Shown: piece after piece, positions 8,859 through 64,000 of the stretch
How positions within the stretch are numbered: the first letter of the stretch is position 1
How the letters are laid out: each line of letters opens with the position of its first letter
DNA from: an uncultured delta proteobacterium
GTDB taxonomy: Bacteria > Desulfobacterota > Syntrophorhabdia > Syntrophorhabdales > WCHB1-27
Assembly (NCBI GenBank): GCA_963810935.1
Contig: CAWEPK010000010.1
Location: 256,001 to 320,000 of the forward strand
Length of the DNA: 64,000 bases
Direction of reading: 5' to 3'
Made by a program: the position numbers and the translations under genes
The notes under the pieces: model-generated
The model's database searches: none
What the model saw: the letters and a program-made list of their open reading frames with translations, nothing else
What the model was told of the DNA's origin: nothing

Positions 8859-9464
8859 TTGAAGAACGAGATTGCAGAGCTTAACAGCCTCTGGACGCCC
8901 ATACGCCCGTACCTCGCGCGGCAGATCGGGGAGCTTTACGGCCGCACGGACGGCAGCGTCGTCGAGATAGGCCCTTTCTCCGGCCTGGCGTTCGAGCTAG
9001 CCGCGGCGGGCATCGGCGAATCATTCTGCATGGCGGTTTTCCCGCATGAGATAATCGGGCCGTTGCGTGAAGAGGCAGCAACCCAGGGGGCGGGCGGCAG
9101 GGTGCGAATTGTGGAAAGCGACCCGCAGCTTTCCGTTCTGCCGGACGGCGCCTTCGACCTCGCGGTTTTCAGGGGGGCCTTCTTTTTTCCATCGTTCTTC
9201 AAGCCCGACCTTCGGGCAATTTACAGGCTGCTGAAAGAAAAAGGCATGGCGTTCATAGGCGGCGGTTTCGGCCGGTACACGCCGCAGGAGGTCATTGACG
9301 GCATCAAGGACCGCTCGAAAGAGTTGAACCTCTCCCTGGGCCGCGTCCATTTTTCCGAAGAGGACCTGCGGACAGCCGTCCGCTCGTCATCGCTCTCGGA
9401 AAAGGCGGCCTTCATAACCGAAGGCGGCCTTTGGATAGTCCTGCGCAAAGGAAAGGAAGCGTAA
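8859..9464 (+). CDS. Class I SAM-dependent methyltransferase
   Basis: VVEIGPFSG motif I variant, FDLAVFRGAFFF, IYRLLK. TTG start at 8859 after AGGAGG (the ORF track starts at 8772). Confidence 0.75.
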   Translation: MKNEIAELNSLWTPIRPYLARQIGELYGRTDGSVVEIGPFSGLAFELAAAGIGESFCMAVFPHEIIGPLREEAATQGAGGRVRIVESDPQLSVLPDGAFDLAVFRGAFFFPSFFKPDLRAIYRLLKEKGMAFIGGGFGRYTPQEVIDGIKDRSKELNLSLGRVHFSEEDLRTAVRSSSLSEKAAFITEGGLWIVLRKGKEA

Positions 9465-9484
9465 CGAAACAGAGGCTTCGCTAT

Positions 9485-9609
9485 GGAAAGAATCCGGCCC
9501 ACGCCAATCTTGGGGAAAGATCGTGGGCCGGATGATATAGGCTCCCGGAAAAAAGGGGGGATCGGGGGGGTCCTAAGAACCGGGAAGCCGCTATTGCTAT
9601 CGTAACTGT
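9485..9609 (-). ncRNA. Candidate sigma54-dependent small RNA with C-rich loops
   Basis: Two GC-rich hairpins with C-tract loops immediately downstream of a -24/-12 motif; no convincing ORF. Confidence 0.5.
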
Positions 9610-9619
9610 CTTAAATAAA

Positions 9620-9636
9620 TGCAATATGCGGGCCAA
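9620..9636 (-). promoter_or_regulatory. sigma54 (-24/-12) promoter
   Basis: Minus strand reads TTGGCCCGCATATTGCA, i.e. GG-N10-GC matching TGGCAC-N5-TTGC. Confidence 0.65.
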
Positions 9637-9855
9637 AAACCGGGGCTGGATTAAGAAAAAAAGCGGAAGTGTGGAAATGCAGCTAATTATTAGACTTATC
9701 GGACCACTGCCATGGCCGGTCGTTAATGATCCGCCCTGCGGGCGAAAAAGAATATACCAGATACCCTCAATACCTCAATATATCACGGTCTGCGACTGGG
9801 AAATATGCCAGAACGACTAAGGTGCATCGACAATAATTACGGATAACGGAAAGGT

Positions 9856-47601: not shown

Positions 47602-47976
47602 ATGATAGAGCAATGGCTGGAAGAGATAAAACGGACCGCCGATCCGGCTGAGCTGGGGATGATCCTCGTGCACAACGGCATCGTGAGGGGCACGTCGAAG
47701 AAGGGCGAAGCGGTCACGAAGATGCGCCTGACCTACGATGCCCCGGGCCTGGAAAAACTGATCGGAGAATACAGGCGGAAGGAAGGCATAGTCGGAATCA
47801 AGGCCTGGATAAACAGCGGAGAACTCAGCGTGGGCGACGACATTATGCTCGTACTGGTCGCCGGGAGGTTCAGGACCGATGTGCTGCCTGTTTTCGAATC
47901 CCTTATCGGCAAAATAAAGGGCGAGATCGTCAGCGAGCGTGAGATAAAACCGGACCCTCAAGGACAGGACCTTTAG
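47602..47976 (+). CDS. moaE: MoaE-family protein (molybdopterin synthase large subunit-like)
   Basis: GMILVHNGIVR, GELSVGDDIM.V.VAG..R. Confidence 0.75.
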   Translation: MIEQWLEEIKRTADPAELGMILVHNGIVRGTSKKGEAVTKMRLTYDAPGLEKLIGEYRRKEGIVGIKAWINSGELSVGDDIMLVLVAGRFRTDVLPVFESLIGKIKGEIVSEREIKPDPQGQDL

Positions 47977-48568
47977 GCAGGGTCAGACGGTTGCCCGGAA
48001 AGCGATGCCACTATCAGGTAGTGATAGGGCCCGAGGTCCTGCGCCTGCCCGGTCTTGAAACCGAAGCGCTCCAGGACGGTTTTGGTTTCGTTTTCGGAAA
48101 GCCGTATGCGAGCGGGCGGTCCCATCCCATCTTCGACCTTCTTGAACTCCACGACGGCAAACTTTCCGTCCGGTCTCAACACCCTGGCCGTTTCCCGCAA
48201 TGCCACCTCGCCCGTGCCGTCGCGCAACAGGTCATGCAGCACCGTTGCCATGAGGCAGATATCGACAGAGTCGTCGGGCAGCGGTATGCCTTTGTTCGCA
48301 TCCGCAAAGATAGTCTTGATATTTTCCAGGCCCAGGCTCGCGGCCCGCTCCCTGACCCTGGCAAGCCCCTCTTCCCAGGCATCCATGGCATAGACAGCCC
48401 GGCCGGACCGATGGCCTCCGCCAGGGCAATGGTATAATCCCCTTTGCCGCAGCCAACGTCAAGCAGGGCAGTCGATTCTCCTACCCGCAACTCGTCGAAG
48501 AAACGGGCACGGTCGATCATCTCGAACGTGCCATGGCCTGCGCCCGGCGGTTTATGGTCCTCTGCCAT
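47973..48568 (-). CDS. Class I SAM-dependent methyltransferase, apparent -1 frameshift near 48397
   Basis: LDVGCGKG in the upstream ORF; VDICLMATVLHD and RVLRPDG in the downstream ORF. Confidence 0.82.
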
Positions 48569-48676
48569 CAATATATCCTCCTTTTATCTTATGCGGCCGG
48601 GCGGCAAAGGTCAACCGCTGCCGGCAACCTAAGGTGTCTTGCTCATCGACCCTCGGCCGGAGAGCTTGATATCCCC

Positions 48677-48706
48677 TTGACAATGTTATGAACATATGTT
48701 TATAAT
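48677..48706 (+). promoter_or_regulatory. sigma70 promoter with an overlapping 20-bp palindromic operator
   Basis: TTGACA-N18-TATAAT; TTATGAACATATGTTTATAA at 48686-48705; the ATG lies 6 nt after the -10 box. Confidence 0.75.
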
Positions 48707-48712
48707 ATCGAC

Positions 48713-49015
48713 ATGCCGAGACCAAAGAAATATAGATGTGTAAGCTGTCGCCCGGATGCCACGTATTTCAAGCCCAGGGGTATACCGCTCACTCAGCTCG
48801 AGGAAGTCTGCCTGAATATGGATGAGGTGGAGGCCCTGAGGCTTTGCGACCTGGAGGGGCGCTATCACGAGGCGGCGGCTGCACAGATGAAGGTATCGAG
48901 GCCCACTTTCGGCCGGATCATCAAGGAAGCGAGGCGAAAAACAGCCGAAGCCCTTCTGGGGGGCAAGGCCCTTAAAATAGAAACGAACATCAACAATGAG
49001 GAGGATACGCAATGA
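48713..49015 (+). CDS. DUF134 family HTH DNA-binding protein
   Basis: MPRPKK.R, FKPRG, EALRLCD and M.VSRPTF. Confidence 0.9.
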   Translation: MPRPKKYRCVSCRPDATYFKPRGIPLTQLEEVCLNMDEVEALRLCDLEGRYHEAAAAQMKVSRPTFGRIIKEARRKTAEALLGGKALKIETNINNEEDTQ

Positions 49016-49392
49016 AAGTATGTTTTCCGGTCGAGAAGAATGAAGGAATGAACAGCATGGTCTACGGCCATTTCGGCTCGGCCCCGGCGTTCGTCATGGT
49101 AGATACGGACGAGAAAGGCCTGACGGTCGTCGACAACAGGGACGTCAACCACGTGCACGGCGCGTGCAACCCCATCCAGGCAATTGGCGGCCAGGCGGTC
49201 GATGCGGTCGTTGTCGGCGGCATAGGCGCAGGCGCGATAAACGGGCTTAACGCGAAGGGCATCCAGGTTTATCGGGCCTCCGTGGGGACGGTCGGGCAGA
49301 ACGTTGAGCTTTTCAAAGCGGGCAAGCTCCCCATGCTTACGCTCCAGCACGCGTGCGGCGGGCACAGCACCGGCGGCTGCGGCCACCACTAA
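49012..49392 (+). CDS. NifB/NifX family metal-cluster-binding protein
   Basis: HFGSAP.F, HGAC, GGIGAGA and a Cys/His tail. Confidence 0.88.
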   Translation: MKVCFPVEKNEGMNSMVYGHFGSAPAFVMVDTDEKGLTVVDNRDVNHVHGACNPIQAIGGQAVDAVVVGGIGAGAINGLNAKGIQVYRASVGTVGQNVELFKAGKLPMLTLQHACGGHSTGGCGHH

Positions 49393-49409
49393 GAGAACGA
49401 GGGGGGACT

Positions 49410-49642
49410 ATGCCGATCTATGAATACGTCTGTAAGAAATGCGGAGAAGTAACGGAGCACCTGGTGCTGGGCAAGGCGAAGACCCTGCCTGCAAGGGATG
49501 CGGAAGTCAAGAGGTCGTAAAGCTCATGTCCGCGGCGAACGTCGGGGCCGCTTCCCCGTCGTTCTCGCCGCCCCAGGCAAGCGGCGGCTGCTGCGGCTCG
49601 CCAGGCTCCTGCGGGAACCCGGGAAGCTGCTGCTCCGGTTAG
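49410..49642 (+). CDS. FmdB-family zinc-ribbon protein, apparent -1 frameshift near 49475
   Basis: MPIYEYVCKKCG in one frame continues as CKGCGS..V.KLMS...CCG in another. Confidence 0.8.
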
Positions 49643-49913
49643 GAAGGGGAACTGTCCCTCGGATAAGGTGCTGTAGTAAAGAGCGGGCGCAGGTAATATC
49701 GAACACTGTAAAAGATATTGCCGGCGCCCGTTTTATATTGCCGGGCAGACCCACTTCAGATCGCCCGGCTGCATCTCTTCCGTCACGCACTATTCTCGGG
49801 CCATTGACATTAACGTTATGTTAAGCTAAGATTAACCTTAACGGGGTGTCCCTGCAAAAAACTCTATTTCCAAGTATTTACACGTTCCATTCGGTCCATT
49901 TAGGGGCCAATAT

Positions 49914-50051: not shown

Positions 50052-51212
50052 ATGACTGACGACACCCCCCTGCTCGACGACCTCGAGAAGGGACCATGGC
50101 CGAGCTTTGTTAAGGAGATGAAGCGGGCTGCAAAGAAGAACCCCGCGGCAAAAGATCTCCTTAAGATCCAGGAGCGCTCCTATCATGACCGGGTAACCCA
50201 CTGGAAGCATGGAGGCATAGTGGGGGTTACAGGCTACGGGGGAGGCGTAATAGGCAGGTACTGCGATGCGCCCGATGACTTCCCATTCGCCGCTGCCTTC
50301 CACACCATGCGGATCAACCAGCCCGCAGGCTGGTTCTACACAACGGACGCCCTCCGGAAGATCTGCGACATATGGGAGAAGTACGGAAGCGGCATGACCA
50401 ACTTCCACGGCTCCACAGGGGACGTCATCCTCCTGGGCACCACCACGGAGAACCTCCAGCCCTGCTTCGACGAGCTTACCGAAGCAGGCTTCGACCTGGG
50501 CGGCTCCGGCTCCGCGCTTCGCACCCCCGCTGGCTGCATAGGCCAGGCCAGGTGCGAGTATGCCAATATCGACACCTTAGACCTTATCTACGACCTCACC
50601 ATGACCTACCAGGACGAGATACACCGCCCCCGCTGGCCCTATAAGTTCAAGATCAAGGCGTCCGGCTGCCCCAACGACTGCGTTGCCGCCATAGCAAGGG
50701 CGGACTTCACGATCATAGGCGCCTGGCACGACTCTCTCCGTATAGACCAGGAAGGGGTAAGGACCTATGTGAAGGATGGTCTGGACATAGACTCCCTCGT
50801 AGTCCGCAAGTGCCCCACCGAGGCCCTTGACTGGGACGGTACTACCTTAAAGCTCATCCCTGAGGACTGCGTCCGCTGCATGCACTGCATAAACACCATG
50901 CCGAAGGCCCTAAGGCCCGGCATAGTCAAAGGGGCAACCATCCTGATAGGCGGCAAGGCCCCTATCTTAAAAGGCGCCAACCTCTCCTGGGTGCTTGTCC
51001 CCTTCATGGAGATAAAACCCCCCTATACGGAAGTAAAGGACCTCCTTGCCAAGATATGGGACTGGTGGGACGAGCACGGAAGGACGCGCGAGAGGGTAGC
51101 CGAGACCATACAGAGGATCGGCCTGAAGGAGTTCCTAAAGGCGGTCGACCTTCCCCCCGTGCCCCAGATGGTCAATAAACCGAGAGCCAATCCCTATGTG
51201 TTCTTCAAATAA
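50052..51212 (+). CDS. dsrA: Dissimilatory sulfite reductase alpha subunit
   Basis: [39 protein letters not shown]5C...GCPNDC siroheme motif, CVRCMHCIN and NPY. Confidence 0.97.
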
Positions 51213-51222
51213 GGAGACAACC

Positions 51223-52288
51223 ATGAGAAAGACCGATATAGGACCCCCCGACTTCAAAACGATGCTCCCCGACGTGATCAAGGACAACTACGGCAAATGG
51301 AAGTACCACGAGATCGTAAAGCCGGGCGTCCTCCGCCATGTCTCGGAATCAGGCCAAGAGGTCTACTCCATCCGTGCAGGCTCCCCCAGGCTCGTCTCTA
51401 TAGACTTCATAAGGGACCTCTGCGATGTGGCCGATAAGCACTGCAACGGCCACCTCCGCTTTACAAGCCGCCACAACATAGAGTTCATGACCCCGGACAA
51501 GATCAAAGGTGGAGCCTATTATCGCAGACCTCACAAAACTGGGCCTCCCCATAGGCGGGACGGGCAAGTGCATCTCGAACATCGTCCACACCCAGGGGTG
51601 GATCCACTGCCACAGCGCGGCAACCGACGCATCGGGCATAGTAAAAGCAGTCATGGACGCCTTCCACGACCAGTTCACCGAGATGAAGCTACCGAACCAC
51701 CTTCGGATATCCCTTGCCTGCTGCATCAACATGTGCGGTGCGGTCCACTGCTCCGACCTTGCCATAGTGGGCGTACATACGAAGCCCCCCCGGCCCGACC
51801 ATGAGAGGGTGCTCGCCCAGTGCGAGATACCTACAACCATACAGTCCTGTCCCACAGGGGCGATCCGAAGGCACCCGGATGCTGACATAAAGAGCGTGGT
51901 TGTCCGCGAGGACCTCTGCATGTACTGCGCCAACTGCTTTACCGTCTGCCCGGCCATGCCGCTTGCCGACGGGGATACGGACGGTGTCGCCATTTACGCA
52001 GGGGGCAAGGTGCCCAATGCCAGAAAGCCCCCGATGTTCTCCCGCATGGTAGTCCCCTACCTGCCCAATAACCCTCCCAGGTGGCCCGAGGTAGTGGACG
52101 TCCTCAAGAGGATAGTCGATGTCTATGCATCATCCGCCAGGCCGACCGAGAGACTGGGCGAGTGGATCGAGAGGATAGGCTGGGAGGCCTTCTTCAAAAG
52201 GACCGAGATACCCTTCACCGAGCAGCACATAGACGACTTCACCCATGCAGTGGAGACTTACAGGACTACCACGCAGTTTAAGTGGTAG
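51223..52288 (+). CDS. dsrB: Dissimilatory sulfite reductase beta subunit, apparent +1 frameshift near 51508
   Basis: [52 protein letters not shown] and HIDDF. Confidence 0.95.
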
Positions 52289-52442
52289 GGGGAATGATGC
52301 ACTTTCTTCCTTTTTATGAGGGGGTGGCTCCGGCGGCTTCGCCGCTGGAGGGGGCGACGATAGCCCCGGTAATTGCCGACTTTACCCATGTAGTCGAGAC
52401 TTATAGGACTACCACGCAGTTTAAGTGGTAGGGGGAAATGAT
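52235..52442 (+). repeat. Imperfect direct repeat of the dsrB 3' end (52235-52298 and 52378-52442)
   Basis: GACTT(C/T)ACCCATG(C/T)AGT(G/C)GAGACTTA(C/T)AGGACTACCACGCAGTTTAAGTGGTAGGGGGA occurs twice. Confidence 0.92.
52317..52377. repeat. Structured dispersed repeat, copy 1 (REP/MITE-like)
   Basis: About 61 bp nearly identical to 59376-59436; two hairpins. Confidence 0.85.
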
Positions 52443-52456
52443 CAGGAGGTTTAACA

Positions 52457-52773
52457 ATGCCTAAGACAAATTAGGTGGAAAAGAAATAGAGATCGATGAG
52501 GACGGCTTCATCCAGGAGCCGGAGAAATGGAACAAAGAGGTGGCGGAAGACTTGGCAGTAACCGAGCATGCCTCTCCCATGGGAGAGGAACACTGGAAGC
52601 TCGTCAACTATCTGAGGGAATACTACCTCAAGTATGAGATCGCCCCTCCCGTCCGTATGCTGGTGAAGCAGACAGGCTTAGACCTCAAGAAAATATATAC
52701 GCTGTTTCCCGGCGGACCGGCGAAAGGGGCGTGCAAAATAGCGGGCCTGCCCAAACCGACGGGCTGCGTGTAG
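52457..52773 (+). CDS. dsrC: Sulfur carrier DsrC, apparent -1 frameshift near 52470
   Basis: AGGAGG RBS; EIDEDGF...W; C-terminal GPAKGACKIAGLPKPTGCV with both conserved Cys (CX10C). Confidence 0.93.
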
Positions 52774-52786
52774 GGGGCAATACGGC

Positions 52787-53689
52787 GTGAGTATTTTTCT
52801 GGCCATATTGACCTATTTCGGTTACGTCTTCGTAGTGACCATGTACACGGTCAAGGCCGTGAAGTACGTGAGGCGCCCGCGTCACCTGAGATGGGACCTC
52901 TACCCGGTCATGCACGAGGAGAGGTACCGTTACGGCGGCTCTTATTTCGAGGAGATCAATGGTGCGGCCGGGGCGCGCAAGAAACACCGGCTGCGCAGCA
53001 TCTTTTTCCTTTTGAAAGAATATGTGACTATGGGGGAGTACTTCAAGCGGCGAATAAGCTACTGGCTGGCCCTCTACCCCTGGCACATAGGCTTTATCCT
53101 GATAATCGGCTTCCACATCTGCACGTTCTTCGCCGCTGTCGTCATGCTCCTCGGCGTGCCCGTATCGGCAGGATCACCGGTTGCTGCGGGGCGGGTATTT
53201 TACTACGTCGTCCTCTTTACAGGCGTCGTAAGTTTCGTGAGCGGCATCATCGGAAGCATAGGGATGGTAATCAACAGGCTGACTGCCGCCGACCTGAAGG
53301 ATTACGCGACCCCTCAGAACTACTTCACCTATATCTTTTGTCTCGCCATTTTCGGGAGCGGGCTCTACGCCTGGTACTTCGACCCGACTCTCTCGGAGTA
53401 CAGGGATTTCTGGGTCGGACTGATCACGTTCAAGCCCATTATGGTCGCTCCCGCGGGAACGCTCCATATAGTCTTATTCGACCTCTTTCTGGTTTATCTC
53501 CCTTTTACGCGCTCGATGCACTATATCACCCGCATATTCGCCTTCCTCTTCATAAGGTGGGATGACGAGCCCAACCTGCGGGGAAGCCGCCTCGAATCCC
53601 AATTGATCCGCCAGATGGGACAAGGGGTGAGCTGGGCGGCGCCGCACGTACAGACGGGCGGGACATGGGTGGACCAGGTGAAGTCATGA
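52787..53689 (+). CDS. DsrM-like/NarI-type membrane cytochrome b (first module)
   Basis: LRWDLYP...YGGSYFEE; heme His pairs WHIG...FH and LH...PFTRSMH; about six TM helices. Confidence 0.82.
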   Translation: MSIFLAILTYFGYVFVVTMYTVKAVKYVRRPRHLRWDLYPVMHEERYRYGGSYFEEINGAAGARKKHRLRSIFFLLKEYVTMGEYFKRRISYWLALYPWHIGFILIIGFHICTFFAAVVMLLGVPVSAGSPVAAGRVFYYVVLFTGVVSFVSGIIGSIGMVINRLTAADLKDYATPQNYFTYIFCLAIFGSGLYAWYFDPTLSEYRDFWVGLITFKPIMVAPAGTLHIVLFDLFLVYLPFTRSMHYITRIFAFLFIRWDDEPNLRGSRLESQLIRQMGQGVSWAAPHVQTGGTWVDQVKS

Positions 53690-53705
53690 AGGTTGGAATA
53701 AGTCT

Positions 53706-55304
53706 ATGAAGAAGAGAATAACTGTCCGGGACATGTCGAGAGCGGACCGGCAGCTTGCCACGCTTGCGCCGTCCGGCTTTATGCCGCTGCCTCCCCCTTA
53801 CGACGGTCCAAACGTGATAGGCGAGCTTTCAGACGAGCAGAAGGCTCGGTACGAGGCCTCCCTCGACGGCGTCATAGCTGTAGGGGTGCGGAAACCGCAA
53901 AGCCCCGCCGAAGAAGAGGCGTTCTGCCGCGGCTTCCTCTCGGGCCTCGCGAAGCTCATGACCAAAGAAAACAACTGGACGTTCCTCCAGCCCCTGATGC
54001 ATTCGCTGGACTACTGCGTCAAGTGCCAGCTTTGCAGCGACTCATGTCCCGCGTATCTGGGTAGCGGCAAGCAGGAAATATACCGGCCGACCTTCCGGCC
54101 GGAGGTCCTCCGCCGCATCATCAACAAATATCTCAAGGAAGAGGGCGGTCTGCTCCGCAAGCTGACCGCGAGCGACATCGAACTGAACTTCACCCTTCTG
54201 GCAAGGCTTGAAGAGCTTGCCCACAGGTGCACGCTGTGCCGCCGCTGCGCGCAGGTCTGCCCGCTTGGCGTCGATAACGCGCTGATCTCGCGGGAGATCA
54301 GGAAGCTTTTCAGCCAGGAGATGGGCATCGCCGCGAAAGAGCTGCACGAGCAGGGCACCGTGCAGCAGTTGAAGGTGGGTTCGAGCACGGGCATTACGCC
54401 CAAGGCGCTGGCCAACATCATCGACTTCATGGAAGACGACATAGAGGAGAAGACGGGCAAACGCATAAAGATACCCGTAGACAAGGAAGGGGCCGACGCC
54501 CTTCTCGTGCACAACGCGGGGGAGTTTCTCGCCTGGCCGGAAAACCCGGAGGCGTTTGCGATCCTTTTCGACGCGATGGGCATCGACTATACCCTTTCCA
54601 GCGATCTGGTAGGCTACGATGCGGTCAATTACGGCATATGGTATGATGATGTGCAGGCAGCACGGGTGGCGGTGCGCCACGCGGAGGCTGCGAAGCGCCT
54701 GAAGGTGAATAAGATCTACGTCGGTGAATGCGGCCATTCGCACAAGGCGCTCCTCGTGATCGCCGACCGGATACTGACAGGCGACCTCAATATACCGAGG
54801 GAAAGCTTCCTGCCTCTCATGGAGCGGTTCGTCACGAGCGGAAAGGCAAAGTTCGACCCGTCGAGGAACGCTTTTCCCGTGACCCTCCACGACCCGTGCA
54901 ACATGGTCCGCCTTATGGGTATCGTCGAGCCGCAGAGGAAGATACTCCGGGCGATTTGCCCGGATTTCAGGGAGATGACGCCCCACGGCGTAGAGAACTA
55001 CTGCTGCGGAGGGGGCAGCGGCTTTGCGATCATGCAGTCGATGAACTTCCCAGACTGGCGCAACGCCATATCGGGAAGGATGAAGATGAAGCAGGTCATA
55101 GAGGCTTTTGCTGATAGACCCGATCCGGGCGTCAAAAAGTACGTCTGCGCCCCCTGCTCGAACTGCAAAGGCCTCTTGAGGGACCTGATCACTTATCACG
55201 GCGCGTATGAAAAGAGCGGCATATTCTACGGGGGCCTGGTAGAGCTTGTTGTCAATGCGATGGCGGACCTGAAGAAGCCGTACATCGATTGGGAATGGCA
55301 CTAA
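53706..55304 (+). CDS. DsrK-like/HdrD-type CCG-domain Fe-S protein (first module)
   Basis: CVKCQLCSDSCP, CTLCRRCAQVCP, GECGH and HDPC...CCGGG...CSNC. Confidence 0.88.
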   Translation: MKKRITVRDMSRADRQLATLAPSGFMPLPPPYDGPNVIGELSDEQKARYEASLDGVIAVGVRKPQSPAEEEAFCRGFLSGLAKLMTKENNWTFLQPLMHSLDYCVKCQLCSDSCPAYLGSGKQEIYRPTFRPEVLRRIINKYLKEEGGLLRKLTASDIELNFTLLARLEELAHRCTLCRRCAQVCPLGVDNALISREIRKLFSQEMGIAAKELHEQGTVQQLKVGSSTGITPKALANIIDFMEDDIEEKTGKRIKIPVDKEGADALLVHNAGEFLAWPENPEAFAILFDAMGIDYTLSSDLVGYDAVNYGIWYDDVQAARVAVRHAEAAKRLKVNKIYVGECGHSHKALLVIADRILTGDLNIPRESFLPLMERFVTSGKAKFDPSRNAFPVTLHDPCNMVRLMGIVEPQRKILRAICPDFREMTPHGVENYCCGGGSGFAIMQSMNFPDWRNAISGRMKMKQVIEAFADRPDPGVKKYVCAPCSNCKGLLRDLITYHGAYEKSGIFYGGLVELVVNAMADLKKPYIDWEWH

Positions 55305-55317
55305 GGGAGGGAGTGCT

Positions 55318-55653
55318 ATGGCAGAGCAAAAGGTGTTCGTATTGGGCCGGGAAGGGATAAGCGGCGAAGACGAAACACTCGGGTTCGAGATATTAATGGC
55401 AATGGTCCGGAGCCTCTCCAGCCGCGAGGAGCTTCCGGCCGCGATCGTTTTCTGGAATACGGCGGTGCGGCTTCTGACCGACGCGTCGCCCGTGTTGGAG
55501 CAGCTCAAGGCACTGGAGGAGAAAGGCGTCGCCCTGGTCGCCGGCAAGCTTTGTCTCAGCGAACTGGAGATAACGAATCTTGCCGTAGGCAAGGCCGGAA
55601 CTATGGACGACATCCTCGACCTGTTCAATAAGTACGGGGTGGTGAGCTTGTGA
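55318..55653 (+). CDS. DsrE-fold protein (YedF C-terminal-like)
   Basis: LG..ILM, P..IVFWNTAV.L, LKALEEKGV, GKLCL and AVG...TM pattern. Confidence 0.75.
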   Translation: MAEQKVFVLGREGISGEDETLGFEILMAMVRSLSSREELPAAIVFWNTAVRLLTDASPVLEQLKALEEKGVALVAGKLCLSELEITNLAVGKAGTMDDILDLFNKYGVVSL

Positions 55654-55684
55654 TAAGAGGATTTACAGGGGCTTCCGGGGAGCG

Positions 55685-56665
55685 ATGACCCTCCCCCTTC
55701 TCTCGGTCCTCGGCCTTGCGGCCCTCGGCTGGGCGGGCGCGCAGCTCCCCGGCCTTACCGCTGTCGCAGTCCCTTATGCGGCCCTTCTGCTTTTCGCAGC
55801 AGGCTTCGTCTACCGTCTCGCTGCCTGGGGGACCTCCCCCGTGCCTTTTCATATCCCCACAGTCTGCGGCCAGCAGCGGTCCCTGCCCTGGATAAAGTCA
55901 TCAACGATCGACAGCCCTTCCACCCGGACGGGCGTCTTCTTTCGTATGGCCCTCGAAGTCCTGTTGTTCCGTTCCCTATGGCAGAATGACAGGATGGAGA
56001 TGAAAAGGCACGAGAAGCTGATCTACGGCTCCAACCGCTACCTCTGGCTCTTCGGCCTCATGTTTCATTGGTCGCTCCTTATAATTCTCTTCCGCCACAT
56101 GCACTTTTTCATGGAATTCCCCGGCATCAGTCGGGTCGAGTCGATAGACGGCTTTTTCCGCATCGGCCTGCCTGCCCTCTATATGAGCAACGTCTTCATC
56201 GCTGCGGCACTTATCTTCCTTTTCGCAAGACGCCTTACCCCCAGACTCCGCATGATATCCCTGCCGCAGGATTACTTCTCCCTTTTCCTTCTCATGGCAG
56301 TAATCGCTTCCGGCACGCTCATGCGCTATTGTTTCAGGGCCGACGTCGAGCGCGTCAAGGAAGTGGTGACGGCCCTCGTCTCCCTAAAGCCGATAGCCCC
56401 GGCCGGGATAGGCGCGTTCTTCTATATCCATCTTTTCCTGGTATCAATTCTCTTCGCCTGGTTTCCATTCAGCAAGCTTATGCACGCACCGGGCGTTTTT
56501 TTGAGCCCCACCCGGAACCTGAAGAATGACAGCCGCGCGAGAAGGCACGTCAACCCGTGGAACTACCCCGTAAAGGTGCACACTTACGCGGAGTATGAGG
56601 AAGAGTTCGGCAAGGCTATGGAGGAAGCAGGCCTGCCCGTGGATAAGGGGGGCACGCATGGCTGA
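55685..56665 (+). CDS. dsrM: DsrM membrane cytochrome b
   Basis: PVPFHIPTVCGQQ.SLPWIK, EVLLFRSL, FHWS...RH and HLFLV...FPFSKLMH...LSPTRN. Confidence 0.92.
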   Translation: MTLPLLSVLGLAALGWAGAQLPGLTAVAVPYAALLLFAAGFVYRLAAWGTSPVPFHIPTVCGQQRSLPWIKSSTIDSPSTRTGVFFRMALEVLLFRSLWQNDRMEMKRHEKLIYGSNRYLWLFGLMFHWSLLIILFRHMHFFMEFPGISRVESIDGFFRIGLPALYMSNVFIAAALIFLFARRLTPRLRMISLPQDYFSLFLLMAVIASGTLMRYCFRADVERVKEVVTALVSLKPIAPAGIGAFFYIHLFLVSILFAWFPFSKLMHAPGVFLSPTRNLKNDSRARRHVNPWNYPVKVHTYAEYEEEFGKAMEEAGLPVDKGGTHG

Positions 56666-58237
56666 GCCGAAACAGGAAGAGATGCTTCAAGGCATCGACT
56701 ACAAGGCATCCGGCTGGATGGCCCCATCCGCCCCTTTCCGCAAAGGGACATACTCCTACGGCGCGCCGGTCAAGCACCAGAAGTACCTGGAGCTGCCCAA
56801 CATAAGGGAGTGGCAGCCGACGGATGCGGACTGGAAGCTCCCGGAAAACTGGAAAGAGATCGTCCTCTCCGGCATGAAGAAGCTCCTTGCCCGCCACCGC
56901 TCGTTCAGGCTTTACCTGGACATCTGCGTCCGCTGCGGCGCCTGCGCGGACAAGTGCCATTACTACATCGGCTCCGGCGACCCTAAGAACATGCCCGTCA
57001 TCCGCGCGGAGCTTTTACGCTCCGTTTACCGCCGCTACTTCACGACCGGGGGCCGCCTTTTCGGCCGCCTGGCAGGCGGGCGAGAGCTTACCGAGGACGT
57101 GATCAAGGAATGGTTCTACTATTTCTACCAGTGCTCGGAGTGCCGCCGCTGCTCCGTCTTCTGTCCCTACGGCATCGATACCTGCGAGATCACGATGATG
57201 GGCAGGGAGTGCTCAACCTGGTGGGCATCAACATCCAGTGGGTGGTGGAGCCTGCCTCCAACTGTTTCAGGACGGGCAACCACTTAGGGATTCCTCCCCA
57301 TGCAATGAAGGAGACCCTCGAATTTGCCGTAGACGAGCTGGAAGGCATAACAGGCATCAAGGTGGACCTCCCCATAAATAAAAAGGGCGCGGAAATCCTT
57401 TTTGTAGCCCCTTCGGCGGACTTCTTCGCAAGCCCCCACTGGTATACGCTTTTGGGCTACCTGGCCCTCTTCCATGAGATAGGCCTCGACTACACGTGGA
57501 GCACCTATGCGTCCGAAGGGGGCAACTTCGGCCTCTTCCATTCTTCCGAGCTTGAAAAGCGCCTCAACGCAAAGATTTACGCGGAGGCTAAAAGATTGGG
57601 AGTCAAGTGGATACTCGGCGGAGAATGCGGACACATGTGGCGCGTCATCCACCAGTACATGGATACCATGAACGGCCCGGCCGACTTCCTTGAAGAACCG
57701 GTATCTCCCATAACCGGTACGAGGTTCGCGAACGCCCGCTCCACGAAGATGGTCCACATATCGGAGTTTTCCGCAGACCTCATAAAGAACGGCAAGATCA
57801 CCCTCAACCCGTCCCGGAACGACAAGTACAGCATCACGTACCACGATTCGTGCAACCCGGCCCGCGCGATGGGGCTTTTTGAGGAGCCCCGCTTTATCCT
57901 GAATAACGTCGCAAACTACTTCTACGAGATGCCGGAGAACACAATAAGGGAAAAAACTTTCTGCTGCGGCGGCGGTGCGGGTCTTGGGGCCGACGAGAAC
58001 ATGGAAATGAGGCTCAGGGGAGGACTCCCGAGGGCAAACGCGGTCAAATACGTACATGAGCGCCACGGCGTAAACATGCTCGCCTGCATGTGCGCCATCG
58101 ATAAAGCTTCGCTCCCTCCCCTCATGGAATACTGGGTGCCGGGGGTCGAGGTATGCGGCGTCCATGAACTGCTCGGGAATGCCCTCGTGATGAAGGGGGA
58201 GACGCGGACGACCGATTTGCGGGGCGAGCCGCTATGA
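56658..58237 (+). CDS. dsrK: DsrK, apparent -1 frameshift near 57209
   Basis: ICVRCGACADKCH, PKNMPV.RAELLRSVY, CSECRRCSVFCPYGIDT, SEGGNFG, GECGHMWR and HDSC...CCGGG. Confidence 0.93.
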
Positions 58238-58611
58238 GACCGGCCGCCGTCATCATCGCCATCTTTTTGGTTCTCCTCGCCCTGCCCTTCGTCTATAATA
58301 CGATAAGCAGGGGAGCGCCCCCTGTCCTCGTCCCGCCGCCCGGGGGCGAGAAACAGTGCGTCGAGCCGGTGGAGTACATGCGCAAGCACCACGTCGAGAT
58401 TCTGAAAGATTGGCGGGATGAGCGCGTGCGCGACGGGAAGGTTGCATACGTCTCCTCGACAGGTAGGTCCTATACGATAAGCCTCACCGGGACGTGCCTT
58501 GGCTGCCATTCCAACAAGGCGGAATTCTGCGACCGCTGCCACAACTACCTGCGGGTAGAGCCTAACTGCTTCGACTGCCATGTCGTGCCGAAGGCAAAGG
58601 GGGCCGGATGA
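58234..58611 (+). CDS. dsrJ: DsrJ triheme cytochrome c
   Basis: Three CxxCH motifs (CLGCH, CDRCH, CFDCH), QCVE..YMR..H, and an N-terminal anchor. Confidence 0.93.
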
Positions 58612-59312
58612 ATAGAAGAGACTTCCTCCGCACCCTCGCAATTATGGGTTTTGCCATCGTCGCTCCCGCCGATATACTCAAGGCTGCGCAGCCGGGCAGA
58701 CGATGGGCGATGACGATCGACCTGTCCGCGTGCTCCGACGGGTGCACTGATTGCATCTCGGCCTGCCACACGATCCACAATGTACCCGATATCGCCGACC
58801 CCAAACGGAAGATACGGTGGATATGGACGTCGCCGTTCGAGGACCTTTTCCCGGAGGCCCCGGCCTATAAAATGCGCGGTCCCGTCCTCGCACTCTGCAA
58901 TCACTGTGAGGAGCCGCCCTGCGTGCCCGTCTGCCCGGTCAAGGCCACATTCAAGAGGGCAGACGGCATAGTCATGATGGATTACCACAGGTGCATAGGC
59001 TGCCGGTACTGTGTTGCCGCCTGCCCTTACGGGGCGCGCAGCTTCAACTGGGAGGACCCGAGGCCGTATATCCGCAAGGTCGATCCCGGATACCCCACCC
59101 GGACAAGGGGTGTGGTGGAAAAGTGCAATTTCTGTGAAGAACGGCTGGTAAAGGGGCTTATGCCCGCCTGCGTGGAAGCGTGCAGTAAGGGGCTTGCCTT
59201 CGGCGACCTGAACGACAGCGGGTCTGCCGTAAGACGCCTTCTTTCATCGAGGCACGCGATGCGGCGGAAGGCCTACCTGGGCACGAAACCAGACGTGTTT
59301 TACCTGATATGA
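58608..59312 (+). CDS. dsrO: DsrO periplasmic Fe-S protein
   Basis: Tat motif [34 protein letters not shown] and EKCNFC. Confidence 0.93.
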
Positions 59313-59325
59313 GGGCAATAAATGA

Positions 59326-59486
59326 CCCTGCTGCTTGCAGCAGGGTATCCAGGACAACGAGCTAAGGCGAGTCTTTGAGGGGGAGGCTCCACCGGCTTTG
59401 CCGGTGGAGGGGGCGACGCTAGCCCCAGTAATTGCCACGGAGCGAAGCGAAAAGAGGTCTCCCTGCAGCAAGCTGCAGGGAATCCA
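59326..59486. repeat. Composite intergenic repeat: an inverted pair of 20-bp palindromes flanking copy 2 of the structured repeat
   Basis: CCCTGCTGCTTGCAGCAGGG (59326-59345) and CCCTGCAGCAAGCTGCAGGG (59461-59480) surround 59376-59436. Confidence 0.85.
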
Positions 59487-59507
59487 CCAGTTGAGGAGCG
59501 GCAGGCG

Positions 59508-60660
59508 ATGATTGAAAAAGGGCTGAAAGGCGGCGGCGCTTATTGGGTGTGGCTCTCCTTTCTTTGCCGCACTCACAGTTGCGGGCTTCATCGCCTGGCT
59601 TCAGCAGTGGGCATACGGCCTCGCCGTCACCGGCATGGGCCGGACGGTCTCCTGGGGGCTTTATATAGCCAACTTTACCTTCTTCGTCGGCGTAGCGGCA
59701 TCTGCGGTGACCGTCGTCCTCCCTTACTACCTCCACAACGTAAAAGAGTTCAGGCGCATAGTCATCCTGGGCGAGTTCCTGGCCGTCTCGTCGGTCGTCA
59801 TGTCGCTCCTTTTCATTATCGCGGACCTAGGCCGTCCGGACCGCGCATTCAATATGATCGTCCACCCGACGCCCACGTCCCTGCTCTTTTGGGACATGAT
59901 CGTCCTCAATGGATACCTCATCCTGAACCTCGTGATCGGCTGGTCCACCCTGGACGCGGAAGCCAAAGGAGAGAAGCCGCTGGCATGGGTCCGCTTTTTT
60001 ATCATTTTGTCGATCCCGTGGGCGGTCAGCATCCATACGGTGACTGCCTTTATTTACCAGGGGCTCGTTGCCCGCCCGCTCTGGCACAGCGCTTTGTGGG
60101 CGCCGCGATTCCTCGCCTCGGCCTTCGCCTCCGGCCCTTCCCTGCTTATCCTTCTGGCCCTCTTCCTCAAAAAAGTGAGCCGCTTCGACGCAGGGTCGGA
60201 TGCAATCCGCAAGGCGACGACGATAGCCACGTATGCACTCCTCGTCAATATATTCCTGCTGCTGGTCGAGCTGTTTACGACGATTTACGCTGCCGTGCCC
60301 GAGGACACGGAATCGCTGAAGTACCTTTTCTTCGGCATCGACGGGCACAATGCCCTCGTCCCCTGGATGTGGGCTTCGATGGCGCTCATGGGCCTATCTG
60401 CATGCGCCCTTCTCTTCGAGAGGCTGCGGAACAACGAGGCTGTTCTCGTCTTTATCTGCCTCGCCATATTTATAGGCGTCTGGATCGATAAGGGCCTGGG
60501 GCTGGTAGTGCCGGGCTTCATCCCCTCCCCCCTGGGAGAAATCATCGAATACGGCCCCACGTTCCCTGAATGCCTCATCACGGCAGGGGTGTGGGCATTA
60601 GGAGCGCTGATCGTGACGGTGATGTACCGTGTAGTCGTGAGCGTCAGAGAAAGTGCTTAG
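59508..60660 (+). CDS. dsrP: DsrP (NrfD/PsrC family), apparent +1 frameshift near 59565
   Basis: MIEKGLKG..YW, TGM...VSWGLYIANFTFFVGVAAS, DLGRP, SIHTVTAF, PRFLASAF and WIDKG. Confidence 0.92.
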
Positions 60661-60696
60661 TTTTCTTTTTGCTTTTAGAACAGGGAGGTAGTGGTT

Positions 60697-61497
60697 ATGA
60701 ACATTTCGAGAAGGGACCTTTTGGGAAGCATGGGAGGGCTCGTCCTGGGCCTCGGCCTGGGAGGGCTAGGCACGGGCATCACAAACGGCATAGCAGCCGA
60801 GGCGCAGCCGCAGGCCGCCGAGCTGCCGTGGCCCTATAAGAAGCTCGACCCCGACTCTGCTGCGGAGAGGGCCTACGAGGGATACTACAAGGGCGCCTGC
60901 TGCTTCGGCGGCTTCGACGGCATCGTGGGTGAGCTGCGCAAGGAGGTGGGCGCGCCGTACACGACCTTTCCTTCGTCCTTGATGGCCTTCGGCGAAGGCG
61001 GCGTGGCCGGCATGTCAACCCTCTGCGGGGCGCTGAACGGGGCGGCCATGGCCATATTCCTGACCGCGGGCGGCATGGACAAGGAGAAGAAGGACAGGGC
61101 CTTCAAGCTCATAAGAGAGCTGTACACGTGGTACGAGCAGGAGCCCCTGCCCGACTACAAGCCGAAGAACCCGAAGTTCCAGATCGTCGCTTCAGTCTCC
61201 CGCTCGCCTCTGTGTCACGTCTCGGTCACGAACTGGTGCAAGGTGTCGAAGTTCAAGTCCTTCTCTAAGGAGCGCGCGGAGCGTTGCGCCTGGATATCGG
61301 CTTCCGTCGCCCACCGTGCGGTCCTGCTGCTCAATGATAACCTGGCAGGCTCGTTCAAGACCGCCCACGGCTTGACCGCCCAGACGCAGACTTGCCGTAG
61401 CTGCCATGACCAGGGAGGAATGCTGGAAAACTCGCGGGGAATGATGGATTGCGGAGGATGCCACTTTACTCCCAAAACGAAGCATCCTAAGATATAG
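60697..61497 (+). CDS. Tat-exported split-Soret cytochrome c-like protein (C-GCAxxG-C-C domain plus two CxxCH)
   Basis: SRRDLL Tat motif; LPWPY.KLDP, GACC, LCGALNG, SPLCH and ERC; CRSCH and CGGCH. Confidence 0.82.
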   Translation: MNISRRDLLGSMGGLVLGLGLGGLGTGITNGIAAEAQPQAAELPWPYKKLDPDSAAERAYEGYYKGACCFGGFDGIVGELRKEVGAPYTTFPSSLMAFGEGGVAGMSTLCGALNGAAMAIFLTAGGMDKEKKDRAFKLIRELYTWYEQEPLPDYKPKNPKFQIVASVSRSPLCHVSVTNWCKVSKFKSFSKERAERCAWISASVAHRAVLLLNDNLAGSFKTAHGLTAQTQTCRSCHDQGGMLENSRGMMDCGGCHFTPKTKHPKI

Positions 61498-61559
61498 TAA
61501 CCCTTTGAAGCGGGGCGAGTCGTCAGGCACGCCCCAATCCTGTTCGTAGGAGAGGTGTT

Positions 61560-62972
61560 ATGGCGGATAATAAGAAACCCGTAGCGCAGCAGGGAGCAAA
61601 GCCAGGCGCCGGCGAGGCGCAGCCTCCTTCCATGGGATGGAAGGAGCTTTACTTAAAGGAAGACTGGTGGGCGATCTACCTTGGGCTCGGCATTGTGGTG
61701 GTTGCGCTCATCGCTTTCCTGAGCGGCAGTACTGTCGTTAAGGCGCTGTCCGTCAACCCGGGCGGTCTGAAATGGTCGTCCCTCGACCAGCTCGGAACCC
61801 ATTTCAGCAATAACATCCAACTTTACGTCCTGCAATTGATCTGCTGGCTCATCATCCTTGGAATACCGGCGAGAATAATGGGCATAAAGGGGTCCAGCTT
61901 TGTCCCGTCCTTCATAATCCTCTATATACTCTCGGTCATCATGTTCGCCATCGGCGGATGGGTGGACGCTGGCAAATACAACATGGAGCCGCCCCTCCTC
62001 GCGCTGATTCTCGGCCTTCTGATAGCCAATATTGTACCCCTTCCACAGTGGATCAATGCGGGCTTCCGGGTCGAGTATTACGTGAAGACAGGCATCGTCC
62101 TTTTGGGAGCGACGTTCCCTCTCACGCTCGTCTTCTCCGCCGGGCCGGTGGCCCTCTTTCAGGCGACGGTCATTTCTCTTATCACCTGCCTGGTGATATA
62201 CTTCGCCGCCACTAAGCTGCTGGGCCTTGATAAAAAACTTGGCGCGCTCCTCGGCGTCGGCGGCGCGGTCTGCGGTGTCTCCGCATCCATCGCAATCGCG
62301 GCGTCGGTAAGGGCAAAGAAGGAACACCTATACATGACGGTGACCCTCGTCGTTATCTGGGCGCTCGTCATGGTTTTCTTCATCCCCTTTATGTCCAAGG
62401 TCTTCAACCTTAACGCCGGACAGGCGGGCGCATGGGTGGGGACCTCGGAGTTCGCCGACGCGGCAGGCTTCGCGGCAGCATCCGCTTATGGCCGGATGTC
62501 GGGCAATGAGAACGCAGCCCTCCAGGCGTTTACCCTTATGAAAGTTATCGGCAGGGACATCTGGATAGGTATCTGGTCCTTTATCTTCGCCCTGATAGCC
62601 TGCCTCAAGTGGGAGAAAGAAGAATGCGGCGTAAGGCCGAGCGCAATGGAGATATGGTGGAGGTTCCCCAAGTTTGTCATCGGTTTCTTCGTTGCCTCCT
62701 TAATAATGACGGCGGTGACTGCCGGGTACGCGGCACCCGTGTTCAATAAGGTCGTCAAACCTGGGTTGATCGGACCTATCGCGTCACTGAGAGGCTGGAC
62801 CTTCATATTCTGCTTTATGAGCATAGGACTGACGACCAGGTTCAGGGAGCTGAAGGGAGCCGGTGTGAAGCCCTTCGGTGCGTTCACCCTAGGCGTGATC
62901 ATCAACGTGGTGCTAGGCTTCCTTCTCTCGGTATACGTTTTCGGCGATTATTGGACGAAGCTCGTTAAGTGA
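61560..62972 (+). CDS. Putative sulfate exporter family (YeiH/UPF0324) transporter
   Basis: EDWWAI, KTGIVLLG, VCGVSASIA, AGAWVGTS and RFPKFVIGF; many TM helices. Confidence 0.88.
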   Translation: MADNKKPVAQQGAKPGAGEAQPPSMGWKELYLKEDWWAIYLGLGIVVVALIAFLSGSTVVKALSVNPGGLKWSSLDQLGTHFSNNIQLYVLQLICWLIILGIPARIMGIKGSSFVPSFIILYILSVIMFAIGGWVDAGKYNMEPPLLALILGLLIANIVPLPQWINAGFRVEYYVKTGIVLLGATFPLTLVFSAGPVALFQATVISLITCLVIYFAATKLLGLDKKLGALLGVGGAVCGVSASIAIAASVRAKKEHLYMTVTLVVIWALVMVFFIPFMSKVFNLNAGQAGAWVGTSEFADAAGFAAASAYGRMSGNENAALQAFTLMKVIGRDIWIGIWSFIFALIACLKWEKEECGVRPSAMEIWWRFPKFVIGFFVASLIMTAVTAGYAAPVFNKVVKPGLIGPIASLRGWTFIFCFMSIGLTTRFRELKGAGVKPFGAFTLGVIINVVLGFLLSVYVFGDYWTKLVK

Positions 62973-63229
62973 GAACTATAAGGCAGCGGATTGATAATCC
63001 GACACCGGCCGGCGAGAAGTGCGACCCGGCCGGCCGGTGCGCGGGCTGCGCGCACTTCGAGGCGGACCCGGCCATGGTTGAGTCCGCGTTGCCGGGGATG
63101 ACGGTTCTCGCATCGGCCTACTCGTCGGTAAGCGCCGGTGTGGGGCTGTGTATGCTCCACGACCTCGTTGTCTCCCCGTGGAAGGGGTGCGGGGACTTCG
63201 AGGAGCGGGGCGGCGGCAGTCCGGCATAG
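62969..63229 (+). CDS. Small Cys-rich hypothetical protein
   Basis: CAGCAHF...GLCMLHD...CGDF; GTGA overlap with the transporter stop. Confidence 0.65.
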   Translation: MRTIRQRIDNPTPAGEKCDPAGRCAGCAHFEADPAMVESALPGMTVLASAYSSVSAGVGLCMLHDLVVSPWKGCGDFEERGGGSPA

Positions 63230-63254
63230 CGTACAACGTGGAAGGAGGGGTCTC

Positions 63255-64000
63255 GTGGAAGACGAGATAAGCAGGAGAGATTTTCTCAAGACGACCGTCG
63301 GCGCTGGGGCGGTATTGATGGCAGGAGGTGTCATGGGAGGGGCAAAGACGGCTTACGGCGCAGTAAAAATGGCGGAGCTCGACAAGCTGAACATCACGAT
63401 CATAACCGACAACTATTACGACGCCCTCAGGCCCGACGCGCCAATAACGAAGAGGTTCCGCACGCAGCCCGGCAAGTGGATGCACGCAGAGCACGGCCTC
63501 TCGTATTTTATCGAGACGGCGGGCGGCGGCAAGACCGGCGTTTTCATGTTCGACTACGGCCTCGATGCGCAGGGCGTGAAAAGGAACATGGACGTGCTCG
63601 GCCTCGATGCAGGCAGGGCGGAAGGCTTCGGCCTGTCGCACGGCCATTTCGACCACTGGGGCGGCTTCACTCAGATGCTCGCCTTGAATAAAGACAGGAT
63701 AAAGAAGGGGGCGCCGCTCTACCTGGGCGAGGGCGCGTTCGACCAAAGATATTCGTTGGTGCCGGGCACCAGCCAGAGACTCGATATCGGCCGCTTGAGC
63801 AAGGCCGACATAGAGGCAACGGGCCTGGTTCGGGTCGTTGAGGTCAAAGCCCCCACGGAGGTTATGCCGGGCGGTTATTTTTCGGGCCACGTCGAGCAGG
63901 TGACCGAGTACGAGAAAGTGCCGCCTGTCCTTCTTGTCGAGCAGAACGGCGCAATCGGCGTCGATTCCTTCCCCGGCGAGCAGGCAATGGCGTTCAACGT
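63255..64000 (+). CDS. Tat-exported metallo-beta-lactamase-fold hydrolase, truncated by the window edge
   Basis: Manual translation MEDEISRRDFLKTT...ITDNY...AEHGLS...FDYG...LSHGHFDHWGG; AAGGAGG RBS before the GTG. Confidence 0.88.
   Translation, partial: MEDEISRRDFLKTTVGAGAVLMAGGVMGGAKTAYGAVKMAELDKLNITIITDNYYDALRPDAPITKRFRTQPGKWMHAEHGLSYFIETAGGGKTGVFMFDYGLDAQGVKRNMDVLGLDAGRAEGFGLSHGHFDHWGGFTQMLALNKDRIKKGAPLYLGEGAFDQRYSLVPGTSQRLDIGRLSKADIEATGLVRVVEVKAPTEVMPGGYFSGHVEQVTEYEKVPPVLLVEQNGAIGVDSFPGEQAMAFN

Follow-up and report, generated by a model that had tools for sequence, protein, structure and literature searches.

Paralogues of the dissimilatory sulfite reduction genes dsrM and dsrK, named dsrM2 and dsrK2, lie before dsrA in Desulfosporosinus SbF1 (SBF1_1810002/3), where they are annotated as DsrMK-like, show positive log2 fold-changes and are transcribed in peat (Hausmann et al. 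2019; PMC6372793); such paralogues upstream of dsrAB have been described as "not uncommon" (Hausmann et al. 2018; PMC6018796). The DiSCo paper mentions an alternative DsrMK type (PMC8477390), and Neukirchen et al. 2023 (PMC10504309) describe a basal DsrMK clade from DsrMKJOP-carrying archaea, Clostridia and Deltaproteobacteria. DsrMKJOP of Archaeoglobus fulgidus is a menadiol:DsrC-trisulfide oxidoreductase; the CCG motif of its DsrK ends in Asp, that of the extra DsrK in Cys (Barbosa et al.; PMC10861901). Here, we characterize a dsr gene cluster in a 64,000-nucleotide stretch (the window) of an uncultured delta proteobacterium of the order Syntrophorhabdales, to which named homologues of its first DsrMK module also point. 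The window is part of contig C10 of assembly G000 (4.06 Mb, 21 contigs, 93.5% complete, 7.1% contaminated; G, C and L numbers denote genomes, contigs and loci). A preliminary description had regarded the cluster as unusual: dsrABC plus two different DsrMK modules in one operon, pointing away from sulfate reduction.

The cluster is co-oriented on the forward strand, from dsrA (50052) to a metallo-beta-lactamase (MBL)-fold gene running past 64000, in the order dsrA-dsrB-dsrC-dsrM2-dsrK2-YedF/DsrE-like gene-dsrMKJOP-split-Soret-like cytochrome-YeiH-type transporter-86-aa open reading frame (ORF)-MBL. All genes of the order first proposed are present and co-oriented, with profile matches (Table 1), and the five adjacent subunits of DsrMKJOP all exceed their family cut-offs. 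It is also true of this locus, as had been stated, that no dsrD follows dsrB, no dsrT precedes dsrM, and neither dsrL nor dsrN occurs within the cluster.

Profile searches place the window's K2 protein nearest to DsrK (344 bits; cut-off 400), with HmcF at 186 and TmcB at 178 bits. K2 lies below the canonical DsrK cut-off and outside the canonical clade and is, by sequence comparison, a DsrK paralogue rather than a canonical DsrK. Its CCG motif ends in Cys, while that of the canonical DsrK encoded downstream ends in Asp; the K2-type motifs are invariant in 94/94 aligned K2-type proteins. A FastTree phylogeny of 74 of the 138 collected proteins (midpoint root, no archaeal rows; fragments, 7 duplicate loci, around two-thirds of the K2-type rows from outside the order and the window's frameshifted canonical DsrK left out) separates, in the unrooted sense, 50 first-module-type from 23 canonical proteins by one long branch. 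The four histidines of the M2 protein listed in Table 1 align with DsrM His128/138/249/267, and the protein has a NarI fold with predicted haem binding. Because K2 is 54% identical to the K protein before dsrA on Desulfosporosinus SbF1 contig 181, annotated dsrM2/dsrK2, and because such paralogues have been described upstream of dsrAB, we identify the first pair from its sequence as DsrM2/DsrK2, a named, uncharacterised DsrMK paralogue. That the pair might instead be an unrelated Hdr or Nar unit is contradicted by the best profile score, the motifs, the tree and the DsrC model described below.

M2 is much less conserved than K2, and divergent M2 types swap among close relatives (27–34% versus ~70% identity); type switching is seen at L034:7474-8310, L043 (G001), L038:7700-8570 and L041:7341-8191. 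Both distal-haem histidine positions are changed together in 6/24 order-level M2 homologues. Among K2-type genes, extra copies paired with DsrC-like genes without the final cysteine occur at L192:6308-9231, L193:5705-8640 and L191:5916-8096; one K2 gene (G019) has no M2 neighbour; and in G013 two different M2K2 copies (L028:2-2230 and 8064-10537) flank dsrABDNC in one cluster.

A model of the complex between K2 (residues 60-525) and DsrC from a relative (L028) scored 0.71, with the best control at 0.00, runs agreeing on at least 97% of contacts and partner pLDDT (predicted local distance difference test) values of at least 86. The mark used for such models is reached by 51/78 solved pairs and 2/108 mismatched pairs. 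In the model, the C-terminal tail of DsrC lies next to the CCG region of K2, and the interface comprises DsrC residues 101-105 and, close to the CCG cysteines, K2 residues 441-442 and 485-489. The modelling supports the prediction that DsrC binds K2.

Compared with the described systems, DsrM2/DsrK2 of SbF1 share with the window's pair their family, size (~300 + 535 aa) and linkage to dsrAB. They differ in that the SbF1 pair lies upstream of dsrAB, while the window's follows dsrC and directly precedes dsrMKJOP; moreover, the window's M2 keeps four histidines, whereas 50/50 homologues outside the order lack the second. With A. fulgidus, which has extra dsrMK copies (AF0543-0547; PMC3949148), the window shares the Asp/Cys contrast in CCG motifs and GECGH in both DsrK types; unlike A. 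fulgidus, it carries both modules in one cluster with dsrABC. The combination of JOP-less DsrMK and DsrMKJOP in one deltaproteobacterial genome likewise resembles the basal DsrMK clade (PMC10504309). We first assumed that K2 represents this clade and later came to doubt it: among the entries visible there, the rows for Desulfosporosinus OT and BG and two Chloroflexi leave the M2/K2 neighbours of dsrA or dsrC unlisted. K2 is therefore probably not the published clade, and the DsrM2K2 family may have escaped that survey, as far as its listed entries go. HdrDE of Methanosarcina, HmcEF, TmcBC and NarI share with M2K2 the architecture of cytochrome b plus CCG-domain Fe-S protein; K2, however, has one CCG motif where HdrD has two, and no Nar catalytic subunits are linked to the pair. 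Sequence searches of the PDB returned no DsrMK structure.

Across the order, 96 genomes were searched and dsrA was found in 43/96. These 43 include 40 with a K2-type gene, 40 with canonical dsrM and 39 with both (the last count being a cross-reading of the dsrA, K2-type and canonical dsrM tables), so that the design is not unusual here. Of the 14 further dsrA genomes in the family, 12 combine the two modules in a single co-oriented cluster; of the remaining two, the first has a contig that stops in K2 and the second yielded just dsrAB-dsrT. The expectation that DsrMK and DsrMKJOP are normally alternatives or unlinked thus finds no support, and the literature notes multiple DsrMK copies. All 12 family genomes outside the genus (12/12) have a 66–78-aa ORF and dsrN between dsrB and dsrC, and dsrT precedes dsrM in 10/12 full family clusters. 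Eleven genomes from other families, chosen via DsrD matches (a biased sample; 20 kb fetched from each), repeat dsrAB-D-N-(YHS)-C-M2-K2 in 11/11 cases, with T-MKJOP within 20 kb in 5/11. The order-wide cluster is dsrAB-D-N-(YHS)-C-M2-K2-(E)-T-MKJOP, with dsrC-dsrM2-dsrK2 as a conserved unit inside it. Outside the order, dsrA lies within 10 kb of K2 loci in 25/72 cases and canonical dsrK in 10/72. The architecture is thus already common, and its first pair already named in papers; DsrM2K2 itself is uncharacterised. Within the genus, G001 matches the window's gene order through to the MBL gene. The window's dsr cluster is typical of the order, in a fragmented version specific to the genus, and is less surprising than on first reading. 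Most genomes of the order have a 48-aa YHS/TRASH-like metal-binding ORF separating dsrN from dsrC (L028:7344-7490 and equivalents).

The double module was also put to the question of sulfate versus sulfite reduction. aprA is present in 8/96 genomes; seven of these have dsrA, and in several of the seven sat-aprBA-qmoABC lies directly upstream. Because 7/7 genomes with aprA and dsrA carry both modules, the double module does not separate sulfite from sulfate reducers, contrary to the preliminary description. Table S1 of Diao et al. 2023 (PMC10591310) records 5/5 Syntrophorhabdia with dsrABCD, dsrMK, dsrJ and dsrT, and without sat, apr and qmo; that table gives presence only, and differs from our search in the matter of aprA.

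The dsrC-dsrM2-dsrK2 unit also occurs on its own. In G081 and G033 (both 100% complete), G022 (97%) and G082 (89%), it is a lone three-gene unit, and no NIR_SIR-domain gene was found in any of the four (0/4; found in the positive control, G083). The lone units keep all catalytic motifs, and the ratio of nonsynonymous to synonymous substitution rates (dN/dS) is 0.07–0.20 for all three genes among G081, G033 and G082. A fragmented genome, G084, also shows the lone unit. Loci of this kind without dsrAB are L188, L189, L190, L195 and L196. Since absence of DsrAB means absence of any known source of DsrC trisulfide, the lone module may act on DsrC disulfide; recent loss of dsrAB is an alternative for these genomes. 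We found no published report of dsrC-M2-K2 under purifying selection without sulfite reductase, though dsrC-dsrMK lacking dsrAB may have been treated earlier by Pereira et al. 2011 or Venceslau et al. 2014.

Some of the genes missing from the cluster were located elsewhere. dsrT (RsbRD_N) is on contig C8, after a second dsrAB and an IS200 insertion, and both C8 junctions were found in public-run contigs (four soil runs from one study, which may include the source sample). Searching 41 genomes (15 with dsrA) with the Pfam DsrD model gave 0 matches and matched no control; this search was uninformative, as a lineage alignment of the ORF 3' of dsrB later found the gene in 41/96 genomes, including 40/43 with dsrA and 3/3 congeners. 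We call this gene dsrD, provisionally, from its position, its size, a winged-helix-type match and the table of Diao et al.; its best Pfam support is weak (E 0.018, top match for 1/3 proteins tested), and a PDB sequence search gave no match for DsrD. All three congeners compared (including G001 and the closest, G002, 66% complete) have a separate dsrD-dsrN-dsrC unit away from the operon. In G001 and G002 it lies beside tRNA-Ser(GCT) and the pst operon, in a block syntenic over ~43 kb of alignments that includes ftsY and lepA (named from their N-termini) and has no orthologous match in this assembly.

The second dsrAB copy (L003:11097-14662; G000 C8:661096-664661) is 98.8% identical to the window's. 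The near-identical C8 tract begins shortly ahead of the dsrA start and reaches as far as the end of a repeat (described below); it is followed by an IS200-family element, a dsrB-tail duplicate with six synonymous differences, and dsrT. Identities among the three copies of G001 are 99.5–99.8%, against 86.6–86.9% between species. Because G000 and G001 both have one dsrC-headed and one dsrT-headed dsrAB copy, the duplication likely predates the species split, judging from sequence, with the copies homogenised since—most simply by gene conversion, although polishing could exaggerate their identity. In G002, the flank that lies upstream of dsrA in the window leads into dsrAB-dsrT, as expected of recombination between copies or of a mis-join. 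Literature searches for dsrAB copies homogenised within genomes returned nothing relevant. Counts based on dsrAB would come out too high where a genome has two or three near-identical copies.

Table 1. Features of the dsr cluster and its surroundings; positions are those of the 64,000-nucleotide window.
Feature	Positions	Strand	Evidence and remarks
Sigma-70-like promoter match, 10/12	49804..49832	+	Upstream of dsrA; consensus only, 7 found vs 5.2 expected by chance
dsrA, bacterial reductive type	50052..51212	+	TIGR02064, 561 bits vs cut-off 393; protein identical to C8 copy
dsrB	51223..52288	+	C-terminal part 369 vs 341.5 bits; extra base ~51502; C8 copy intact
~80-bp REP-like repeat, then diverged duplicate of last ~60 bases of dsrB	52297..52442	+	In the place of relatives' dsrD-dsrN
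dsrC, both C-terminal cysteines	52457..52773	+	One base short near 52470 vs congener
dsrM2, NarI-family membrane cytochrome b, 300 aa	52787..53689	+	His100/110/227/245 aligned to four DsrM histidines
dsrK2, 532 aa	53706..55304	+	Two 4Fe-4S motifs, GECGH Cys342, one CCG motif ending in Cys; predicted DsrC binder
YedF/DsrE-fold protein, one conserved Cys, not DsrEFH	55318..55653	+	After dsrK2 in part of the order
Canonical dsrM	55685..56665	+	NF038037, 445 bits vs cut-off 300
Canonical dsrK, Asp-type CCG end	56658..58237	+	C-terminal part 460 vs 400 bits; frameshift 57209
dsrJ	58234..58611	+	143 vs 100 bits
dsrO	58608..59312	+	302 vs 200 bits
Second, longer copy of REP-like repeat	59316..59494	not assigned	Genome-wide repeat comparison
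dsrP	59508..60660	+	393 vs 350 bits; frameshift near 59570
Tat-exported split-Soret-like cytochrome c	60691..61497	+	220 bits vs cut-off 400; same position in G001, G014
YeiH/PSE-family putative sulfate or sulfite exporter	61560..62972	+	Family match
86-aa Cys-rich ORF	62969..63229	+	No Pfam/NCBIfam match; conserved in G001, G014
Tat-signal (twin-arginine translocation) MBL-fold protein	63255..64000	+	Extends ~300 bases beyond window

Upstream of dsrA (47602-49642), the window carries MoaE-like, methyltransferase, DUF134 and NifB/NifX-like genes, a flank common to G001 and G002. YeiH/PSE-type genes also lie near dsr genes in Eggerthellaceae and Bacillota loci.

The 168-base gap between dsrB and dsrC is filled by a repeat resembling a repetitive extragenic palindromic (REP) sequence and by a duplicate of the dsrB tail. 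The ~80-bp repeat has 64 copies genome-wide; at 16 of them (16/64) the stretch immediately preceding the repeat (15–126 bases) is duplicated directly after it, compared with 2/1000 random sites; some of these duplicates are tandem repeat units. The duplicated pieces include the 3' ends of dsrB, of a tRNA gene and of an apparent infA, and the same combination of repeat and duplication occurs after dsrB in G001 and G012 and after dsrD in G010. The pattern suggests that the repeat inserts or homes by a mechanism that leaves long duplications of the target. We had considered the dsrB-tail duplicate as a remnant of dsrD, and rejected this reading: it is a repeat-associated duplication.

Single-base frameshifts interrupt four genes in the window: dsrB (51502), dsrC (~52470), dsrK (57209) and dsrP (~59570). 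The extra base in dsrB is absent from public-run contigs in 4/4 runs, and the base missing from dsrK is present in 3/3 runs covering dsrK; these two frameshifts are assembly errors. The dsrP break is spanned by two run contigs with one gap each (gap position not shown) and is likely an assembly error too; the dsrC break was compared with the congener only. We read the operon as intact.

Taken as a whole, we favor the view that the cluster is the organism's main dissimilatory sulfite-reduction operon, with two DsrC-recharging membrane modules, in a form that the genus has split; this we hold to be likely. Genes, motifs and distribution are observed, while for chemistry, substrate and physiology we infer the following. 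DsrAB would load sulfite sulfur onto DsrC, and both DsrMKJOP and DsrM2K2 would draw electrons from the quinone pool to return oxidised DsrC to its reduced state, the trisulfide chemistry and the menaquinol donor being taken from characterised homologues. DsrT would be supplied in trans from the second dsrAB-dsrT locus, which this genome contains, and a tRNA-Ser-adjacent locus would probably supply DsrD, DsrN and a second DsrC, judging from the congeners; so judged, the genus would have split an ancestral dsr cluster into separate loci. Going by their family names, the YeiH-type transporter and the periplasmic cytochrome may serve sulfur-oxyanion traffic and electron input. The early proposal of two DsrC-recycling routes in one operon thus stays plausible, in that the first module is of DsrK type and DsrC-linked; its chemistry is argued from homology. 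Several points weigh against this view. The complex was modelled with DsrC from a relative, and does not distinguish between family members as binders or between redox forms of DsrC as substrate; the trisulfide-reductase role of DsrM2K2 is predicted by analogy; and M2 scores just 29 bits on the DsrM model. As the second M2 histidine is absent from many homologues (kept in 17/24 within the order, absent from 7/24, and kept in 0/50 outside), M2 may in some genomes be something other than a simple dihaem quinol oxidase. dsrD and dsrN are not seen in this strain's own DNA. The persistence of dsrC-M2-K2 without sulfite reductase is not explained by pure trisulfide recycling. Finally, the source of sulfite is unexplained by the enzymes found, because no clear thiosulfate reductase (0/7 molybdoenzyme-type proteins passed the PhsA cut-off), glycyl-radical desulfonase or Xsc was found: the genome search gave no glycyl-radical enzyme and no Xsc over cut-off. 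No AsrC or other NIR_SIR gene was found either. Two molybdoenzyme loci were observed: a Tat-exported molybdoenzyme with an NrfC-like Fe-S partner (L175:2773-6322, G000 C1), a candidate sulfur-oxyanion reductase that meets no family cut-off, and a 1129-aa fusion of molybdopterin oxidoreductase and NifS-type cysteine desulfurase (L182:2197-5586, G000 C3).

Two alternatives concern the integrity of the locus and of the assembly. The four frameshifts, the duplicated dsrAB, the 7% contamination estimate and the joining in G002 of the window's upstream flank to dsrAB-dsrT could indicate a decaying or mis-assembled operon. We consider this very improbable: it is largely refuted by the run contigs, which correct dsrB and dsrK and contain the C8-locus junction sequence, and G001 has the same gene order through the MBL gene. 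A bacterial Dsr pathway truly free of DsrD and DsrN is improbable, if somewhat less so. It accords with the failure of the lineage-specific profile to find dsrD in this assembly (best E 4.3; 0 matches), with the position of the sole CobB/DsrN homologue in the cobalamin operon, and with DsrD being non-essential in D. vulgaris (PMC8794893); against it, 3/3 congeners have dsrD-N-C, and the adjacent tRNA-Ser(GCT) and pst operon, together with the linked ftsY and lepA, are also absent from the assembly. Neither ftsY nor lepA has a match over cut-off in this assembly, and its tRNA calls include no tRNA-Ser(GCT), tRNA-Glu(TTC), tRNA-Ile, tRNA-Ala(TGC) or tRNA-Lys(TTT). Because these linked genes are missing too, an assembly gap is the likely explanation for the absence of dsrD-N-C, and dsrD and dsrN very likely lie in unassembled DNA. 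ARAGORN made three tRNA-Sec calls in G000.

The remaining alternatives concern physiology. The assembly (93% complete, with a gap) yielded no sat, aprA or qmo, and we think their absence probably genuine; 2/3 congeners have aprA. Sulfite reduction without sulfate activation is accordingly the most likely way of life, a reading that follows from the missing sat, apr and qmo and not from the two modules. A full sulfate reducer, with a sat-aprBA-qmoABC-dsrAB-dsrD island in unassembled DNA, is a minority possibility in our estimate: G001 carries just such an island as its third dsrAB locus, and the assembly lacks at least one large block, but in G000 C7 the counterpart of the island's hdr-flx flank is not interrupted by such an island, aprA is missing as well from the closest congener, G002 (66% complete), and contig depth over dsrAB is ~1.8–2.3 times that of the flanks in 4/4 runs, which fits two copies rather than three (a weak measure that gives no copy number). 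Disproportionation of sulfur compounds, raised in the preliminary description, found no support, and it or a reverse (oxidative) Dsr pathway is quite improbable. The lone DsrE-fold ORF with a conserved Cys inside the operon would suit such a role, but it is YedF-like and patchy in the order, and no TIGR03012 (DsrE/TusD) match occurs in the genome (type II DsrEFH was not searched with its own profile). apr and sat for an oxidative branch were not found, and the window cluster has no linked gene of dsrL size: the genome has 12 Fer4_20 matches, none at a dsr locus, three of which were scanned and belong to other contexts (no DsrL-specific profile was used). A further, tentative reading takes DsrM2K2, rather than for a spare trisulfide reductase, for a separate quinone:DsrC-disulfide oxidoreductase, a bacterial HdrDE that would work with or without DsrAB and link the DsrC thiol/disulfide pool, and by way of it Hdr-Flx, to the membrane. 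The four genomes with lone units and no NIR_SIR gene, and the purifying selection seen among three of them, are in keeping with it, as are extra copies adjoining DsrC-like genes whose final cysteine is absent (L192, L193), an hdrABC-flx-like cluster in G000 C7 (read from ORF starts), and the proposal of DsrC as a redox hub (cited in PMC5947623). However, most dsrA genomes of the order carry the unit within the dsr cluster, the four lone-unit genomes include two non-independent pairs that perhaps lost dsrAB recently, and K2 resembles DsrK, and not HdrD, in having just one CCG motif.

These results carry a caution for marker-based annotation: the Pfam DsrD model misses this lineage's DsrD, and a 93%-complete assembly may drop a whole dsrD-N-C locus. 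An assay now exists for the canonical complex (PMC10861901). The order provides natural contrasts—genomes carrying both modules with or without sat, apr and qmo, and nearly complete ones that lack DsrAB and keep dsrC-M2-K2 alone—that make the choice between trisulfide and disulfide as substrate directly testable. It is conceivable, though we would not presume it, that dsrC-M2-K2 is a portable, self-contained respiratory module, a membrane quinone:DsrC-disulfide oxidoreductase independent of DsrAB: a protein equivalent of the methanogen heterodisulfide cycle in fermentative or syntrophic anaerobes, overlooked by Dsr surveys, which in this genus would head one of several loci derived from a copied dsrAB cassette homogenised by gene conversion.

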